64,000 nucleotides of DNA from Candidatus Daviesbacteria bacterium (GTDB lineage Bacteria; Patescibacteriota; Microgenomatia; Daviesbacterales; UBA10151). Below are positions 1 through 59,669 of this stretch, one piece after another. The stretch is taken from assembly GCA_016186955.1 (NCBI GenBank), contig JACPKP010000004.1:142563-206562 (forward strand), in the 5' to 3' direction. Numbering within the stretch: the stretch's first letter is position 1; the number at the start of each line of letters is the position of its first letter. The notes under the pieces were generated by a model. It was not told the DNA's origin and did not search any database. It saw only the letters and a list, made by a program, of their open reading frames with translations. The position numbers and the translations under genes are program-made.

Positions 1-260
1 AGTTGAGTTTCCTAAAGAATGCTGATGTAATCTTCTTTCTAAATTGTCAGTGAATCCTTTATAAAATTCTCCTGTTTTATGGCTTTTGATAACATAAACA
101 TAGAACATTTAGCTTTTCTGAGTGTATACCTGCCTGCCGGCAGGCAGGCCATTCCACCACACCAGCAAATACTTAACATATTTTATCAGAACATGCCTGA
201 GAATTTAACTACCACTTTGATGCTTCACTTTTTGGAGCCTGAAGGGATATAATACGGATT

Positions 261-4836: not shown

Positions 4837-4938
4837 CTTCCAATATCACTCCTGGTTTGGTAAAATTGACAAAACAAATAAGATTCTAAGATTTGTTTTG
4901 TCATCCCGATCCGGCGTAGCCGGAGAGGGATCATGTTT

Positions 4939-5100
4939 CGCGGGATCGTCTAATGTAATACACCCCATTAGACGATATGATTGTAGACATATTGCGGGAT
5001 CGTCTAATGTAATACACCCCATTAGACGATATGATTGTAGACATATTGCGGGATCGTCTAATGTAATACACCACATTAGACGATATGATTGTAACTTCGT
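4939..5100. repeat. Tandem array of 3 x 54-bp units, each containing an 11-bp perfect inverted repeat
   Basis: The unit 'gcgggatcgtctaatgtaatacaccccattagacgatatgattgtagacatatt' repeats head-to-tail three times, with the third copy slightly diverged. The stem is atcgtctaatg/cattagacgat. The first 16 nt of each unit match a tRNA 5' end. Confidence 0.9.
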
Positions 5101-5137
5101 TTCAGAACCTTGCCATTACCCGATCTAAGTATGACCT

Positions 5138-5180
5138 TGCGGGATCGTCTAATGGTAGGACGACAGACTTTGCACATTTA
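5138..5180 (+). pseudogene. Degenerate tRNA-Gln-like 5' half (acceptor + D-arm + anticodon loop CTTTGCA, no 3' half)
   Basis: 'tgcgggatcgtctaatggtaggacgacagactttgca' parallels the intact tRNA-Gln at 5914. The anticodon-stem complement and the T-arm are missing. Confidence 0.4.
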
Positions 5181-6064: not shown

Positions 6065-7012
6065 ATGTACCTTATTATGAAGATGAAGACTAACTTTAGC
6101 TGCGTTATCCATGGAAGTTTCCGTAAACATTTTGATGTTATTCAAAAAATCTATAAACTCTTTATCGATGCAGGGATAGAAGTTCTTGCTCCACAACAAT
6201 CAGAAATTGTTTCAATTAAAGATGGCTTTGCACTATTCGAAGGTGAAGAAAAGCTGGACCAGCGTTTAATTGAACTGATATATCTACATAATCTAAAAAA
6301 ACTTGGCGAAAATGGATTTAGTTATTTCATAAACCCTGAAGGATATATTGGAAAAAGTACTTCATATGAGTTAGGAATTGCACAACTTACAAATACACGA
6401 TGCTTTTATTATTCAAAATTAGAAGACCATCCCGCATATGTTCATAAAAATGCTGTTTGGACACCTGAAGATTTAGTTACTTATATCCTCGAAAATGGTG
6501 CGCTACCTACTCCACAGATTAAACGTAGTGAGCGACTTATCCATAAGATGTGGGAAGACTTAATGGTTCCATGTTCAGTAGTAGCTACTGGAGCGATTAT
6601 TGAATATCAACCAAAAAGAAGACAATCTGAGAAAGAGATTTTATTAGTAAAAACTCATAAGTGGGGTAACAAATATTCTATTGTTGGAGGAAAGGTAAAA
6701 AGAAATGAGAGATTAGAACAAGCTCTTATTCGAGAAGTAAAAGAGGAAACAGGTTTACAATCTGAAATTGGTCAACATATCTGCACTTTCGACCAAATAA
6801 AAAATTCAGGATATTATCTATCTGGTATACAACATATTTTTGTTGACAATATTGTCAAAGTTACAAGTAAAAAAGTTTTCCTAAATGGCGAAGCTCAAGA
6901 CTATATCTGGATACCAGCAAAAGAGGCTCTCGAAGCCCTTGCTATTGAACCGAATGCTCGTCATACAGTGCAAATGTATGCGACTAGGCAATCTCAATTA
7001 AATATATTGTAA
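6065..7012 (+). CDS. Fusion: nucleoside 2-deoxyribosyltransferase/DNPH1-like domain + NUDIX hydrolase
   Basis: N-terminal 'GKSTSYELGIAQLTNTRCF' resembles the Ndt catalytic-Glu block (DSGTAFEiGyA). The C-terminus carries the Nudix box 'GGKVKRNERLEQALIREVKEETGL' (GX5EX7REUXEEXGU). Confidence 0.6.
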   Translation: MYLIMKMKTNFSCVIHGSFRKHFDVIQKIYKLFIDAGIEVLAPQQSEIVSIKDGFALFEGEEKLDQRLIELIYLHNLKKLGENGFSYFINPEGYIGKSTSYELGIAQLTNTRCFYYSKLEDHPAYVHKNAVWTPEDLVTYILENGALPTPQIKRSERLIHKMWEDLMVPCSVVATGAIIEYQPKRRQSEKEILLVKTHKWGNKYSIVGGKVKRNERLEQALIREVKEETGLQSEIGQHICTFDQIKNSGYYLSGIQHIFVDNIVKVTSKKVFLNGEAQDYIWIPAKEALEALAIEPNARHTVQMYATRQSQLNIL

Positions 7013-10027: not shown

Positions 10028-10105
10028 AAAGAGGAGGTGGGAAGCCCTGCCTGTCCTGACTGCCGTCAGGCAGGACGGCAGGCAGGTAATCCACCTGGAG
10101 GGTGT
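10028..10105. repeat. 78-bp GC-rich palindrome-containing repeat (MITE-like), copy 1
   Basis: Near-identical (1 mismatch) to 13276-13353. It contains cctgcctgtcctgactgccgtcaggcaggacggcaggcagg. Confidence 0.85.
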
Positions 10106-10475
10106 ACAAGCTACCGAGATTGTCCCTAACGGCCGCAAAAAGACTCTTCAGGCAATCATCAGAGGCAAGATTGATACAGAGGCAGTAGTCCATACTGATA
10201 AATGGAAAGGCTATGATGGGTTAGTTGATGTGGGATATGACAAACACAAGAGGATTAACCATTCCAAAACATTTTCCTATGGAAATGGAATCCACATTAA
10301 CGGTATTGAGAACTTTTGGAGTTTTACTAAAGGTAGACTTGCTAAATTTAGAGGAGTTAAGGTAAACTTTGAATATCACCTAAAGGAATGTGAATGGAGA
10401 TACAAGAAAACCAAACAACAACTTTACAAGGAGCTCATAGTTTTACTGTCATTTCAGAAAGCCCCAGCTTTTTAA
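10061..10475 (+). pseudogene. IS1595-family transposase remnant (C-terminal portion only)
   Basis: '...VVHTDKWKGYDGLVDVGYDKHKRINHSKTFSYGNGIHINGIENFWSFTKGRLAKFRGV' matches the IS1595/ISXO2 C-terminal catalytic region. The N-terminal two thirds are absent. Confidence 0.6.
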
Positions 10476-10497
10476 AGCTGGGGATGAATGAAATTAT

Positions 10498-10522
10498 GGA
10501 TTCCCGTCTTCGCGGGAATGAC
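10498..10522. repeat. RPE-like short palindromic repeat copy (ggattcccgtcttcgcgggaatgac)
   Basis: Member of the GTCATYCCCGC-loop-GCGGGRATCC family. A second hairpin, caccgcttt-tt-aaagcggtg, follows. Confidence 0.7.
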
Positions 10523-10610
10523 AGGAAGATGCACCGCTTTTTAAAGCGGTGTAGATTCACTAAAAGGATTTAACAAATCGTTAATCTCCTAGTCTAGTAC
10601 CTAAAAAATT

Positions 10611-13275: not shown

Positions 13276-13353
13276 AAAGAGGAGGTGGGAAGCCCTGCCT
13301 GTCCTGACTGCCGTCAGGCAGGACGGCAGGCAGGTAATCCATCTGGAGGGTGT
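13276..13353. repeat. 78-bp GC-rich MITE-like repeat, copy 2
   Basis: Identical to 10028-10105 except for one C/T difference. Confidence 0.85.
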
Positions 13354-47135: not shown

Positions 47136-48260
47136 CTAAATCATACTAATGAACTCATCAAACAGATACTCAGCATCAGTCGGACCTGGGCTAGCCTCAG
47201 GGTGAAACTGGACAGCCAGAAATGGCTTTTTTTTATGCCTGATTCCCTCATTGGAACCATCATTTAAATTAATAAACCATTCACTCCAACCCAAAGGCAT
47301 GCTTGTAAAATTAACGGCAAAACCGTGATTTTGGCTGGTTATAATGGCTTTTTTAGTAATGAGATTTTGGACAGGTTGGTTTTGGCCCCGATGGCCAAAT
47401 TTCAGTTTGTATGTATCTCCGCCTGCAGCCAAAGCCAGCAGCTGGCTGCCCAGACAAATCCCGAATACAGGGACAGATTGGCTCAACAAATTTTTTATAG
47501 TTAGTATTGTATCCTTGGAATTTTTGGGGTTGCCCGGCCCGTTGGAGATTAAAACTCCGTCAAAATTCCATTTTTCCTCAATAGGGTCAAAATTCCAGGG
47601 AGCAACAGTTACCCTAAGCTTACGCTTCAGCAGACTCCTGATGATGTTTTGTTTGGCGCCACAATCTATCACCACAACATTTTTTTTGCCTGTTCCATAT
47701 GTTTGGGGTTTTTCAATTGAAACAAACTGCAAAACATTTTCTAGATTTGGATTGTAAATTTCATTTTTGTCATTCTGAACTTGATTCAGAATCTTTCCTG
47801 CATTAGAATGGATTCCCGCTTTCGCTCGCCTCGCTGAAGCTTCGGCGAAGCGGGCGGGAATGACAGTAAGCCGTCCCAACATTGCTCCTTGAGATCTTAA
47901 CTTGGTTGTCAAAGCTCTGGTGTCTATCCCCTGCAAAGCAGGAATACCTTCTTTTTTGAGCCACTCACCCAAACTCATGATGCTTGCAAAGTGGGAGGGG
48001 GAATCAATGTAATTTTGGACAATAAGACCCCTTACCCAAATCTTCCTGGACTCAAAATATTTAGGGTTAGGTACTCCATAGCTTCCAATAATGGGGTAGG
48101 TGAGGACTAAAATTTGGCCAAAGTAGCTGGGGTCTGTCAGGCTCTCGGGGTAACCCACCATCCCTGTATTAAAAACAACCTCCCCTGAGCTTGAAACATC
48201 AGCCCCGAAAGATTCACCTATAAAGGTAGCGCCATCAGATAGAATTAATTTCCCCTGCAA
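47136..48260 (-). CDS. carA: Carbamoyl-phosphate synthase small subunit (glutamine amidotransferase)
   Basis: GATase catalytic 'GICLGSQ' and 'HGFAV...QFHPE' are present. It carries an ~18-aa in-frame insertion encoded by a palindromic repeat. Confidence 0.85.
   Translation of the reverse strand: MQGKLILSDGATFIGESFGADVSSSGEVVFNTGMVGYPESLTDPSYFGQILVLTYPIIGSYGVPNPKYFESRKIWVRGLIVQNYIDSPSHFASIMSLGEWLKKEGIPALQGIDTRALTTKLRSQGAMLGRLTVIPARFAEASARRAKAGIHSNAGKILNQVQNDKNEIYNPNLENVLQFVSIEKPQTYGTGKKNVVVIDCGAKQNIIRSLLKRKLRVTVAPWNFDPIEEKWNFDGVLISNGPGNPKNSKDTILTIKNLLSQSVPVFGICLGSQLLALAAGGDTYKLKFGHRGQNQPVQNLITKKAIITSQNHGFAVNFTSMPLGWSEWFINLNDGSNEGIRHKKKPFLAVQFHPEASPGPTDAEYLFDEFISMI
47811..47864. repeat. 54-nt RPE-like palindromic repeat inserted in-frame within carA
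   Basis: On the coding strand it reads gtcattcccgcccgcttcgccgaagcttcagcgaggcgagcgaaagcgggaatc. This translates to 'VIPARFAEASARRAKAGI' between conserved CarA blocks. Confidence 0.75.
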
Positions 48261-51522: not shown

Positions 51523-52680
51523 TTATATAAGATTGGTCAGCAGATTAGCAAACTGCCTTACAGCCCGGTCTGCCTCAAAAATATCACCCAAGCTTGGGCT
51601 ATATTTTGGGGTGTGTTTTGCTAAAACATTTTCTACCACTTCAGGGATTTTGTAAAAGGGCAGCATGCCATTTAAAAAAGCTTCCACTGCAATATCATTG
51701 GCGACGTTTAATACTGCCGGGTACGTTCCTCCTGATTTAGCAGATTCAATAGCCAGCCTTAAACAGCGGAATGTCTCAGTATCCGGCTCTTCAAATGATA
51801 GTGTCGGGTAGTCAGCAAAAGATAATTTCCTGAAATTATTTTGGATTCTCCTACCCGGGTATAACAGGGCATATTGGATAGGCAAGCGCATGTCAGGAGC
51901 TCCCATTTGTGCAATCACCGACCCATCAACAAACTCCACTGCAGAATGTATGACTGATTGTGGATGGATTATTATGTTTATCTGATCCATGGGTAAACCG
52001 AACAACCAGTGCGCTTCTATCGCCTCAAACCCTTTATTCATTAAGGTCGCGCTGTCAACTGTGATTTTTTTGCCCATCTTCCAATTTGGATGGTTTAATG
52101 CATCCTGTAAGGTCACACTTTTGAGTTGCTCCGTATTTAATCCACGAAACGGGCCGCCGGAACAAGTCAGATAAATTTTACTTACTTGTTCAATGCAATG
52201 GTTTTGGAGGCATTGGAAAATGGCAGAGTGTTCAGAGTCTATCGGTAAAATTTGTGCCTTTGCTTTTTCTGCTGCATCCATAACAACATTGCCTGCTGCA
52301 ACCAAAACCTCTTTTGTGGCTAAAGCTACCTTTTTTTTAGCCTCAATTGCTGCAATAGTAGGTATTATCCCCGGTAAACCAGGTGTCGCTACTACAACCC
52401 TATCAACCTTCTCTGAGGTAGCAGCCAAAACATTACCAAAATCGCCCCAATAAATTAATTCATACCCGTCAAACATCTGATTTAAAATTTTGGCAGAATT
52501 TTTATTCTTTACAGAAACTAAAGCCGGGGAAAACTGTTTAATTTGTTCTGATAACAATTTGGTGTTTGAGCCGGCAGTCAGGGCATAAGCCCTTAAAGAA
52601 TCTTTATGTTGTTTTATAACTTCCAGGGCTTGGGAGCCAATTGAACCGGTAGAACCCAAAATTGCAATGTTTTCCTTCAT
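51523..52680 (-). CDS. dxr: 1-deoxy-D-xylulose 5-phosphate reductoisomerase
   Basis: 'MKENIAILGSTGSIGSQAL', 'LPIDSEHSAIFQCL' and 'LTCSGGPFR' are present. The start is set at Met35 because the upstream extension reads through a GC-rich repeat region. Confidence 0.85.
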   Translation of the reverse strand: MKENIAILGSTGSIGSQALEVIKQHKDSLRAYALTAGSNTKLLSEQIKQFSPALVSVKNKNSAKILNQMFDGYELIYWGDFGNVLAATSEKVDRVVVATPGLPGIIPTIAAIEAKKKVALATKEVLVAAGNVVMDAAEKAKAQILPIDSEHSAIFQCLQNHCIEQVSKIYLTCSGGPFRGLNTEQLKSVTLQDALNHPNWKMGKKITVDSATLMNKGFEAIEAHWLFGLPMDQINIIIHPQSVIHSAVEFVDGSVIAQMGAPDMRLPIQYALLYPGRRIQNNFRKLSFADYPTLSFEEPDTETFRCLRLAIESAKSGGTYPAVLNVANDIAVEAFLNGMLPFYKIPEVVENVLAKHTPKYSPSLGDIFEADRAVRQFANLLTNLI

Positions 52681-52757
52681 TTTTGTATAATAGCAGATAC
52701 AGCCGCAATTGCCAACGTGGTCAAGGCGGGCGCCTGAAGAGCGTCTTATCTCAGTCC

Positions 52758-52853
52758 GATTCTGGGTTGCGGCACCGAGCACCTGCGAGGTGCAAAAAAC
52801 CAGATCAAGGTTCTGACGCGAAGCGTCATGGTTCTTATTCTGGGTTGCGGCAC
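52758..52853. repeat. Two copies of 17-nt direct repeat ATTCTGGGTTGCGGCAC 79 bp apart, with short GC hairpins, in the dxr leader
   Basis: Copies at 52758-52775 and 52837-52853. Hairpins gcacc-tgcga-ggtgc and gacgcg-a-agcgtc. Confidence 0.5.
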
Positions 52854-57876: not shown

Positions 57877-57901
57877 GTCATCCCCGCGGAAGCGGGGATC
57901 C
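57877..57901. repeat. RPE-like palindromic repeat (gtcatccccgcggaagcggggatcc) abutting the glmU-like start
   Basis: Family member with a C/G variant. It reads as 'DPRFRGDD' in the gene frame. Confidence 0.7.
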
Positions 57902-57911
57902 AATTAAAATC

Positions 57912-59669
57912 CTACCTCACAACGACTGACTTTGCCAGATTTCTAGGTCTATCAGGGTTCAACCCTAATTTCAAAGCCAGATAGTATGACAAAAGCTGGG
58001 CAAAAACAGGGTGGGGGATAACTGAGCTTGCCCCAACATCCCTTACCTTAAAAAAGAAGTCAAAAACCGGATTGTTCTCCGGTCCTACACCGATAATAAA
58101 TGCGCCCCGTGCCTTAACCTCCATGGCGTTTGCCAAAATGGCCTGTTTAGTTTCATCTTCCGGTACAAAAACTATCACAGGAGTATTTTTTTCTATTAGC
58201 GCAATCACTCCATGCTTAAGCTCTCCTCCTGCAAAACCCTCAGCATGGATATAGGCGTTTTCCTTAATTTTAAGACTTGATTCCATTGCAACAGGGTACG
58301 AAAGCCCCCTTCCCAAAATGAAAATATTTTTCTGGTGGAATATTTTACCTGCTAAATTTTTGATTGCAGACCTCCTTTTAAGAATTGATTCAATTTCTCT
58401 GGCGCTTTCAAGGATTATTTTTTGGGCTGTTTTTCTTTTACCAACAAGACAATAAGATAAAAACACCATATGGGCAAACATGGCTGTCAAAGCCTTTGTG
58501 GAACATACTGCTTTTTCAACACCTGCCCTCAGCAAAACAGGGAAATCCACGCTCCTGTACAAGGTTGAGCCTAAAACATTAACCAAAGCAACTGTTTTTG
58601 CACCATGCTTTTTTGCTGAAAGTACAGGTTCAAGCGTATCAATGCTTTCCCCTGACTGTGAAACAGCCACCACCAGGCTTTTAGGCTTTATGTAATCCTC
58701 GATATAATTGAACTCAGATCCAACTGAAAAGTTAACATGTTTTTTGGCTATTTTTGAGAAAAGATAAACTCCCAGCAGACATGAATAACTGGCCGATCCG
58801 CAAGCGATAAAAAATGTCCCATAGGCTTTCCTGATCATGCCCGCCACTTGCTCCACCTCTTTGGCGTTTTGTGCAATATTCCGGAGCGCCTTTGGCTGCT
58901 CATATATTTCTTTTTCTAAAAAGTATTTATATTTTTGCAGGCCTGAAGTACTGTGTTCCCAAGGCACCGTAGTAATAATAGGCTGAAGTTTTCTGGAGTT
59001 TAGGCTGTTGTAAAGCTCTAATTCTTTATTTAACCTGATAAGCTGGTTATCTTGTAAAAACACTAATTTTTTTGTGTGGGGGAGTAAGGCGTTCGGATCG
59101 GAAGCAATAAAAAGTTTTCCATTGCCAACACCTGCGATAAGGGGTGAACCAACTTTAGCTGCAATAATTTCATTCCCATCAGATACCACAATAGCGTTTA
59201 ATCCGCGTAATTTCTGGAATATATTTAAAACCGCTTGATTTAAACCATTTTTTTTTAGCGCTTCTTCAATCAAGTGTACGATCACCTCGGTATCAGTTTC
59301 AGATTTCAGATTGTGGCTTTTAAGGGTTTTTTTAAGCTCAAGATAATTCTCAACTATGCCGTTATGGACTAAAACCAGTTTGCCGCTGCAATCTTTATGT
59401 GGGTGGGCATTAATTTGAGTAACACCTCCATGTGTGGCCCAGCGGGTATGCCCTATTGCCAATCCCACACCGTCATTCCCGCGAAAGCGGGAATCCATTA
59501 TTTTTGGTAAAAAACCTGTGTTTTTTTCTATCTTCCATATTCCATCTTCTATATTCCAACTTGCTATTCCCCAAGAATCATAACCCCTGTACTCTATATC
59601 TTTGAGGCCATTAAAGGTTGTTTGAACCGCATTTGTATCCTGACCAATTACCCCAAAAATTCCGCACAT
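57912..59669 (-). CDS. glmS: Glutamine--fructose-6-phosphate aminotransferase
   Basis: 'MCGIFGV', 'GHTRWATHG' and two SIS domains with 'SQSGES' are present. It carries a 9-aa in-frame insertion from a palindromic repeat. Confidence 0.9.
   Translation of the reverse strand: MCGIFGVIGQDTNAVQTTFNGLKDIEYRGYDSWGIASWNIEDGIWKIEKNTGFLPKIMDSRFRGNDGVGLAIGHTRWATHGGVTQINAHPHKDCSGKLVLVHNGIVENYLELKKTLKSHNLKSETDTEVIVHLIEEALKKNGLNQAVLNIFQKLRGLNAIVVSDGNEIIAAKVGSPLIAGVGNGKLFIASDPNALLPHTKKLVFLQDNQLIRLNKELELYNSLNSRKLQPIITTVPWEHSTSGLQKYKYFLEKEIYEQPKALRNIAQNAKEVEQVAGMIRKAYGTFFIACGSASYSCLLGVYLFSKIAKKHVNFSVGSEFNYIEDYIKPKSLVVAVSQSGESIDTLEPVLSAKKHGAKTVALVNVLGSTLYRSVDFPVLLRAGVEKAVCSTKALTAMFAHMVFLSYCLVGKRKTAQKIILESAREIESILKRRSAIKNLAGKIFHQKNIFILGRGLSYPVAMESSLKIKENAYIHAEGFAGGELKHGVIALIEKNTPVIVFVPEDETKQAILANAMEVKARGAFIIGVGPENNPVFDFFFKVRDVGASSVIPHPVFAQLLSYYLALKLGLNPDRPRNLAKSVVVR
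59472..59496. repeat. RPE-like palindromic repeat inserted in-frame within glmS
   Basis: gtcattcccgcgaaagcgggaatcc translates on the coding strand to 'MDSRFRGND', immediately before 'GVGLAIGHTRWATHG'. Confidence 0.75.

Follow-up and report, generated by a model that had tools for sequence, protein, structure and literature searches.

The DNA analysed here, a stretch of 64,000 nucleotides from a Candidatus Daviesbacteria bacterium (hereafter the window), carries within its glmS gene a palindromic repeat that is translated as part of the enzyme. This repeat is in all likelihood a solo copy of the class of oriented DNA hairpins comprising the Neisseria Transformation Sequence (NTS) and the Ssn-related motifs (SRM), present in the gene as an insertion tolerated as a passenger. 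The repeat family and its breadth across phyla are already published, and palindromic inserts in frame have precedents in Rickettsia; what appears to be new is the NTS/SRM family in a genome of the candidate phyla radiation (CPR), in frame in glmS and carA, together with repeated and independent entries into one and the same GlmS loop.

Results

The glmS repeat matches the NTS consensus

The glmS gene occupies 57912..59669 on the minus strand and encodes a glutamine--fructose-6-phosphate transaminase of 585 amino acids (aa), an identification based on the open reading frame (ORF), on the NCBI protein P0001 (a glutamine--fructose-6-phosphate transaminase of Candidatus Daviesbacteria bacterium, 100% identical), on an end-to-end alignment with E. 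coli GlmS (E = 2e-100) and on an AlphaFold2 model. Codons 58-66 (ATG GAT TCC CGC TTT CGC GGG AAT GAC) correspond exactly to positions 59472-59498 and read MDSRFRGND, confirming the in-frame repeat that a preliminary description of this DNA had placed in a loop of the glutaminase domain. The peptide sits six residues ahead of the conserved AIGHTRWATHG, and in E. coli GlmS the HTRWATH segment, which here follows the insert, opens the glutamine-binding 'Q-loop'. The repeat had been given as a 25-nt unit at 59472-59496; its sequence is as then described, while the full conserved unit proves longer, 27-28 nt at 59471-59498 on the plus strand (CGTCATTCCCGCGAAAGCGGGAATCCAT), as judged from the sequence itself, from shuffled controls, from the SRM pattern and from folding. 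The top strand, which has the GTCAT head, is the plus strand, antisense to glmS. Within the unit lies an exact match to the dRS3-type core ATTCCC-N8-GGGAAT (59475-59494, a feature to which no strand is assigned), and the stem consists of two perfect 8-nt arms, 59475-59482 paired with 59487-59494, which enclose the loop GAAA (59483-59486). Either strand, as single-stranded DNA, is predicted to fold at about -9 kcal/mol, with z about -4 relative to shuffles.

The NTS has been defined as CGTCATTCCCGCGMAVGCGGGAATCYRG, a sequence containing the older dRS3 repeat (Chenal et al. 2025, PMC11893778), and the glmS repeat equals it at 27 of 28 positions, the sole difference being the last base, T for G. 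SsnA, a 94-aa single-domain GIY-YIG nuclease (cd10448), binds single-stranded NTS in one orientation only and cuts just upstream (5') of the hairpin stem; the Ssn nucleases of Neisseria and Wolbachia cut this hairpin class as single-stranded DNA, and SRMs and ssn genes have been reported in many phyla, often as NTS-ssn-NTS (PMC11893778). The same work describes the Ssn-related repeats of Neisseria and other, mainly Gram-negative, bacteria as mostly intergenic, only 2% of the NTS copies of N. meningitidis being intragenic. Besides the 27 shared positions, the repeats found here have in common with this family the dRS3 core, the oriented GTCAT head, the hairpin and the occurrence in multiple copies; they differ in their AT-rich CPR host and in the tail, which is ATCCAT here as against ATC(C/T)(A/G)G.

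The 20-nt core, with up to 3 mismatches allowed, occurs 3 times in the window and not once in 100 dinucleotide-preserving shuffles, and the SRM pattern HGTCWYN(0-2)YYVSBRHN(0-5)WNVSBRGN(0-2)RNCYNB has two matches (10496-10523 and 59471-59498) where 0.16 would be expected. An identical GlmS, insert included, is also encoded in an independent per-run Logan assembly (run SRR12113430), and this excludes an artefact in the assembly of the metagenome-assembled genome (MAG). Its short length alone might suggest a chance palindrome, native loop sequence or an assembly error, but the empty shuffles, the agreement with a published consensus, the presence of the same 27-mer in many phyla (see below) and the identical independent assembly reduce the probability of any such origin to practically nil.

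Five of the six frames of the repeat are open: all three of the plus strand (VIPAKAGIH, SFPRKRES and HSRESGNP) and two of the glmS strand (MDSRFRGND and WIPAFAGM). The third frame of the glmS-sense strand is closed by a terminal TGA (GGA TTC CCG CTT TCG CGG GAA TGA), and the suggestion that the repeat is open in all frames, as a hallmark of coding-compatible elements, has to be abandoned. The reading frame of glmS survived because the unit is 27 nt long and has no stop in that phase.

Orthologues lack the peptide

The preliminary description had named, as the case that would speak against an insertion, orthologues bearing the same peptide in the absence of the palindrome. In a set of 119 GlmS orthologues (58-73% identity over shared columns), the peptide DSRxRGND was found in none. 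The segment from GFLP to (A/S)xGHTRW measures 10 residues in 108 of the 119, versus 15 in the window protein, of which six native ones (KI...GVGL) are left when the nine encoded by the repeat are removed. This loop, previously said to vary in length among GlmS proteins, does so only at long range, E. coli having the longer form; among close relatives its length is very constant. The alignment with the E. coli enzyme is gap-free across the loop, the insert restoring the length seen there.

Every residue that is invariant in our alignment of 64 orthologues (A1) is kept in the window protein. The AlphaFold2 model, computed from an alignment of 64 orthologues, has a mean pLDDT of 90.2 and predicts residues 52-69 to lie, without regular structure, between strands 44-51 and 70-76, with residues 61-70 showing the lowest model confidence in the N-terminal domain.

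Related hairpins in the same loop of other Microgenomates

Judging from their sequences, other Microgenomates have acquired related hairpins in this GlmS loop by independent insertions. In one orthologue (P0007), which shares 85% identity with the insert-free P0002 and 71% with the window protein, this loop holds a 27-nt GTCAT-headed hairpin of another sequence (GAGATCCCGAAACAAGTTCGGGATGAC), oriented as in the window glmS, and six native residues remain there too. Comparison of the filled P0007 with the empty P0002 at the DNA level revealed no recognisable homology in the flanks, the two proteins being 85% identical. A second orthologue (P0105) has GTCATTCCCGCTAAGGCGGGAATCCAT (VIPAKAGIH) in the other orientation, followed by 11 nt and then by an inverted second hairpin, and a remnant of this two-hairpin arrangement is present in the GlmS of P0087. 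The preceding GlmS loop also has short palindromes inserted in frame; one of them is CCTGCCGGCAGGCAGG (P0005 and P0013), which is found again at positions 129-148 of the window.

Copies elsewhere in the window

In total, the window contains four NTS-type copies, two strict and two variant, and one related hairpin. The other strict copy, TGTCATTCCCGCGAAGACGGGAATCCAT, is intergenic (10496-10523, minus strand) and was recognised by its core, the SRM pattern and folding. On both sides it is flanked by further hairpins, CCCCAGCTTTTTAAAGCTGGGG and CACCGCTTTTTAAAGCGGTG, and this trio (10451-10558) just follows an 81-aa ORF (10230-10475) that has no Pfam match.

Between the glmS stop and the start codon of the downstream NTP-transferase/hexapeptide gene (ATG, 57876-57874) there are 35 nt, 27 of which are taken up by the variant copy GTCATCCCCGCGGAAGCGGGGATCCAA (57877-57903, plus strand; core match and folding). 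In its stem a T-A pair has become C-G, the change affecting both arms so that pairing is kept; the stems of the published subfamilies likewise differ and yet keep pairing. The public gene call starts the NTP-transferase at a TTG within the repeat (LDPRFRGDD...), which is probably a mis-called start.

The fourth copy lies in carA (47808-47864, minus strand; sequence and folding), where it reads VIPA...KAGIH from residue 133. The presence of the same repeat in this gene, in the opposite orientation, had been noticed before and holds good, the copy being interrupted by a 30-nt palindrome (47824-47853) nested in its loop. The related hairpin, GTCATTCTGAACTTGATTCAGAAT (47769-47792, plus strand), is also GTCAT-headed and stands inverted 15 nt from this copy, and the composite (47769-47864), two hairpins placed head-out around the 15-nt spacer, encodes residues 133-164 of CarA. 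Residues 132-166 have no alignment to the solved CarA/CPS1 structures and fall between the two domains, in the interdomain linker. The same head-out architecture is found in the glmS of P0105 and in an NTS-ssn-SRM unit of a Candidatus Peribacteria MAG (L198, see below), as it is around published ssn genes, and the pairs of carA and P0105 have the look of NTS-ssn-NTS derivatives that lack the ssn gene. Both glmS and carA are full-length, retain their conserved residues and give strong matches to solved structures; the proteins thus stay intact around an in-frame insertion, as in the Rickettsia case.

No target-site duplication is common to the flanks of the four copies, and terminal inverted repeats of the transposase type are likewise absent. 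The elements resemble MITEs such as Correia and ERIC, which occasionally become fused to genes in frame, in being small, non-autonomous repeats that can lie inside ORFs, but differ from them in these two respects and in the size of the solo unit, which is far below that of a MITE.

Could the hairpin have been kept in glmS for a function, either as an mRNA structure acting on translation or decay, or as a protein loop tuning the adjacent glutamine-binding loop? The perfect stem, the pairing preserved by changes on both arms of the 57877 variant, the position a few residues ahead of the conserved HTRWATHG segment and the fact that two independent lineages (window glmS and P0007) both reached a 15-residue loop are all in keeping with this idea. 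Yet the same element occurs at unrelated sites and in both orientations, and 108 of the 119 orthologues do without any insert. Neither a T-run nor another regulatory signature was seen in the sequence flanking the hairpin, and an Rfam search around glmS returned tRNAs only, without a glmS ribozyme or any family matching the hairpin. We therefore consider a retained function improbable, and markedly so.

Distribution of the family

A scan of one genome per species with the pattern GTCATTCCCGC-N4-GCGGGAATCCAT gave matches in at least 120 stretches from over a dozen phyla. Among the matches listed are Alpha-, Beta-, Gamma- and Deltaproteobacteria, Chloroflexota, Planctomycetota, Cyanobacteria/Vampirovibrionales, Verrucomicrobiota, Nitrospirota, Spirochaetes, Omnitrophica, Bacteroidota, Ignavibacteria, Acidobacteria, Zixibacteria and a 'Peribacteria' MAG; a similar hairpin pattern also matched viral contigs, at least as many as are listed. 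An Ssn-like GIY-YIG gene directly adjoins the repeat in 7 of the 120 loci among the matches listed. One of the loci, that of the CPR-labelled Candidatus Peribacteria MAG (L198), has an NTS copy that is base for base equal to the one in glmS, and its Ssn-like gene is bordered on both sides by hairpins placed head-out. This Ssn-like gene (6665-6931, minus strand) has an in-frame TGA where a homologue has glycine, which suggests either genetic code 25, with UGA read as glycine, or a pseudogene. A cross-phylum estimate of the intragenic share, taken from ORFs of at least 200 codons that span the 27-mer (35 of 153), was discarded, since the ORFs inspected were either spurious and GC-rich or had the element upstream of a plausible start. 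A literature search yielded no relevant account of in-frame palindromic repeats from CPR genomes.

These data also bear on the possibility that the repeat represents a dedicated, coding-compatible palindromic family of the type described from Rickettsia (RPEs), shaped by evolution to keep every frame open and to spread mainly within genes. RPEs, ten families of about 150 bp described from Rickettsia (Ogata et al. 2000; review, PMC10969869), are likewise palindromic, lie in frame in unrelated metabolic genes in varied orientations and add a peptide that is tolerated. In the window, two of the four copies form in-frame parts of housekeeping genes, one in each orientation; other short palindromes are in frame in the GlmS loops of related Microgenomates, and the in-gene copies seen have one codon phase in common. 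The likeness to RPEs put forward in the preliminary description is thus apt as regards behaviour but not as regards family. The unit of 27-28 nt falls short of the roughly 100-150 bp of RPEs and its sequence is unrelated to theirs, being that of the pan-bacterial NTS, which occurs in many phyla, is elsewhere mostly intergenic and has just the small intragenic share cited above in Neisseria. One of its frames carries a TGA, and in the genome sample most of the apparent 'in-ORF' copies either precede the real start or fall in ORFs that are GC-rich and spurious. A dedicated family of the RPE type is, on this evidence, very unlikely.

Search for a partner enzyme

Inside the window no Ssn-like gene was found. 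A Pfam scan covering 50 of the 60 window ORFs of at least 120 aa, plus one 81-aa ORF, gave no match to a transposase (Y1/RAYT included), an integrase or a second GIY-YIG domain; the ten ORFs outside the scan include glmS, carA and the downstream NTP-transferase, which were already identified. Among the best 120 Ssn-like matches to a CPR Ssn-like query, none bears a Daviesbacteria label.

One GIY-YIG gene is present at the left edge of the window, its ATG at 108-106 on the minus strand and its body running off the edge; the full 82-aa product can be seen in locus L122 (1-345) and is also encoded, as P0241, on the same NCBI contig. The protein has a single domain (Pfam) and is 35% identical to the Ssn-like proteins that adjoin NTS copies. 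As the cognate Ssn this gene was rejected: no NTS-like hairpin occurs in 80 loci with its homologues (283 kb, 38% GC), and the family sits directly upstream of tRNA genes, which lie within 250 nt in 66 of the 80 (metagenomic loci L250-L329), usually in the same direction and 0-30 nt beyond the stop. On these two grounds it is a different, tRNA-associated family and not the partner of the NTS. The adjoining genes are mostly for tRNA-Leu, with Glu, Met, Asn and His also represented.

REPs are extragenic by definition and have the head GT[AG]G. The repeat might nonetheless be conceived as an element of the REP type, moved by a RAYT (REP-associated tyrosine transposase) through IS200/IS605-like peel-and-paste and not an SRM at all. 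Size, hairpin, defined orientation and clustering do recall REP/BIME, which are likewise short, oriented single-stranded-DNA hairpins found in inverted pairs that flank the gene for their cognate enzyme, and the authors of the Ssn work draw this analogy themselves (PMC11893778). The head here, by contrast, is GTCAT and the sequence equals the NTS; the ORFs scanned contain no Y1 transposase family, and the neighbouring enzyme gene, where one is seen, is a GIY-YIG, the Ssn enzymes being GIY-YIG hydrolases and those of REPs HUH tyrosine transposases. A REP-type origin is accordingly a scarcely credible account of the glmS repeat.

Discussion

If the glmS repeat is a solo NTS/SRM copy, as we think most probable, the element would act as DNA. 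The top strand, once single-stranded (5'-CGTCAT, stem, loop, stem, ATCC), is predicted to fold into a hairpin that Ssn nucleases would bind and cut just 5' of the stem, as they do in Neisseria and Wolbachia. The repeats would multiply and move between genomes, probably in connection with IS-like NTS-ssn-NTS units, and in the Daviesbacteria lineage one copy would have entered codons that specify a loop on the surface of the glutaminase domain of GlmS. The outcome would be the gain of MDSRFRGND and the loss of about four native loop codons, and the peptide would be a neutral passenger with no role of its own. What the data document is the agreement with the NTS/SRM consensus, a predicted hairpin, several copies in the window, a peptide missing from every orthologue, a position in a loop and an enzyme that keeps its invariant residues; we infer that the peptide is neutral, that an Ssn-type enzyme acts on the copies in this bacterium and that the glmS copy arrived along the route just outlined.

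Several observations do not fit easily with this explanation: (i) the loop has gained 5 residues (15 nt) and not 9 (27 nt), some four native codons having gone, and the event was therefore not a clean addition of 27 nt. (ii) The nearest GlmS is 73% identical and there is no close empty site, the boundaries of the insert being drawn from protein alignment only. (iii) The arithmetic of six native residues plus nine recurs in the independent case of P0007. (iv) The scope of 64 kb yields just two strict copies, two variants and one related hairpin. (v) Neither a cd10448-type Ssn gene nor a transposase was seen in the 64-kb window, and its edge GIY-YIG gene belongs to a family whose 80 loci are free of NTS-like hairpins. 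(vi) Ssn enzymes are hydrolytic nucleases and are not known to copy or move the hairpins.

The codon phase deserves mention in this context. The in-gene CPR copies seen here share a single phase, in which the 27 nt make up nine whole codons, in either orientation: this is so in the window glmS, in the glmS of P0007 and of P0105, in carA and at the start of the gene after glmS. Being shared by four or five cases, roughly p = 0.03 if the open phases are equally likely, the coincidence is only suggestive. Taken with the six-plus-nine outcome in the one GlmS loop that two independent lineages have in common, it could mean that CPR hairpins of the NTS type are phase-locked nine-codon cassettes, inserted or exchanged at codon resolution on exposed loops in the absence of a local Ssn, an idea that we regard as unlikely. 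If it were true, phase-locked hairpins would be a general, cross-phylum source of new protein loops rather than merely tolerated junk.

The findings extend the SRM hairpins to a genome of the candidate phyla radiation and show that such hairpins, of which so few are intragenic in N. meningitidis, can sit in frame in the essential enzymes GlmS and CarA. They provide natural test cases for the spread of the hairpins, for the need for an Ssn nuclease and for the tolerance of a conserved enzyme to a foreign loop. For annotation, they account for the recurrent peptides of the 'VIPAKAGI / MDSRFRGND / SFPRKRES' type and for mis-called gene starts.

Other features of the window

The surroundings of the edge GIY-YIG gene (1-165, minus strand) include, after the gene, the 5' part of a tRNA-Leu(TAA)-like gene and, before it, a duplicate of about 25 nt of the tRNA 5' part. 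The GIY-YIG gene looks like a mobile gene that, in CPR bacteria, targets tRNA genes at their 5' edge. The duplicated tRNA fragment upstream of it is split by a perfect 20-nt palindrome, CCTGCCTGCCGGCAGGCAGG (129-148), whose family encodes an in-frame 'MPAGRQG' in the GlmS orthologue P0005 (L247) and probably also the insert of P0030.

Another small repeat family is represented by two identical 22-nt palindromes, CTGCCGTCAGGCAGGACGGCAG, at 10060-10081 and 13308-13329, 3.2 kb apart. The spacer at 4860-5180 is rich in repeats: a 13-bp hairpin (4867-4903) overlaps a possible, degenerate GTCAT-headed hairpin (4900-4935) and is followed by three tandem units of 54 nt starting with GCGGGATCGTCTAATG, a sequence that resembles the 5' end of a tRNA, and by a fourth copy that runs on as a tRNA-like 5' half (about 5139-5175). 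Finally, the listed dxr ORF (51523..52782, GTG start) overlaps a tRNA-Phe on the opposite strand within 52702-52782, and the true dxr start probably lies further downstream.

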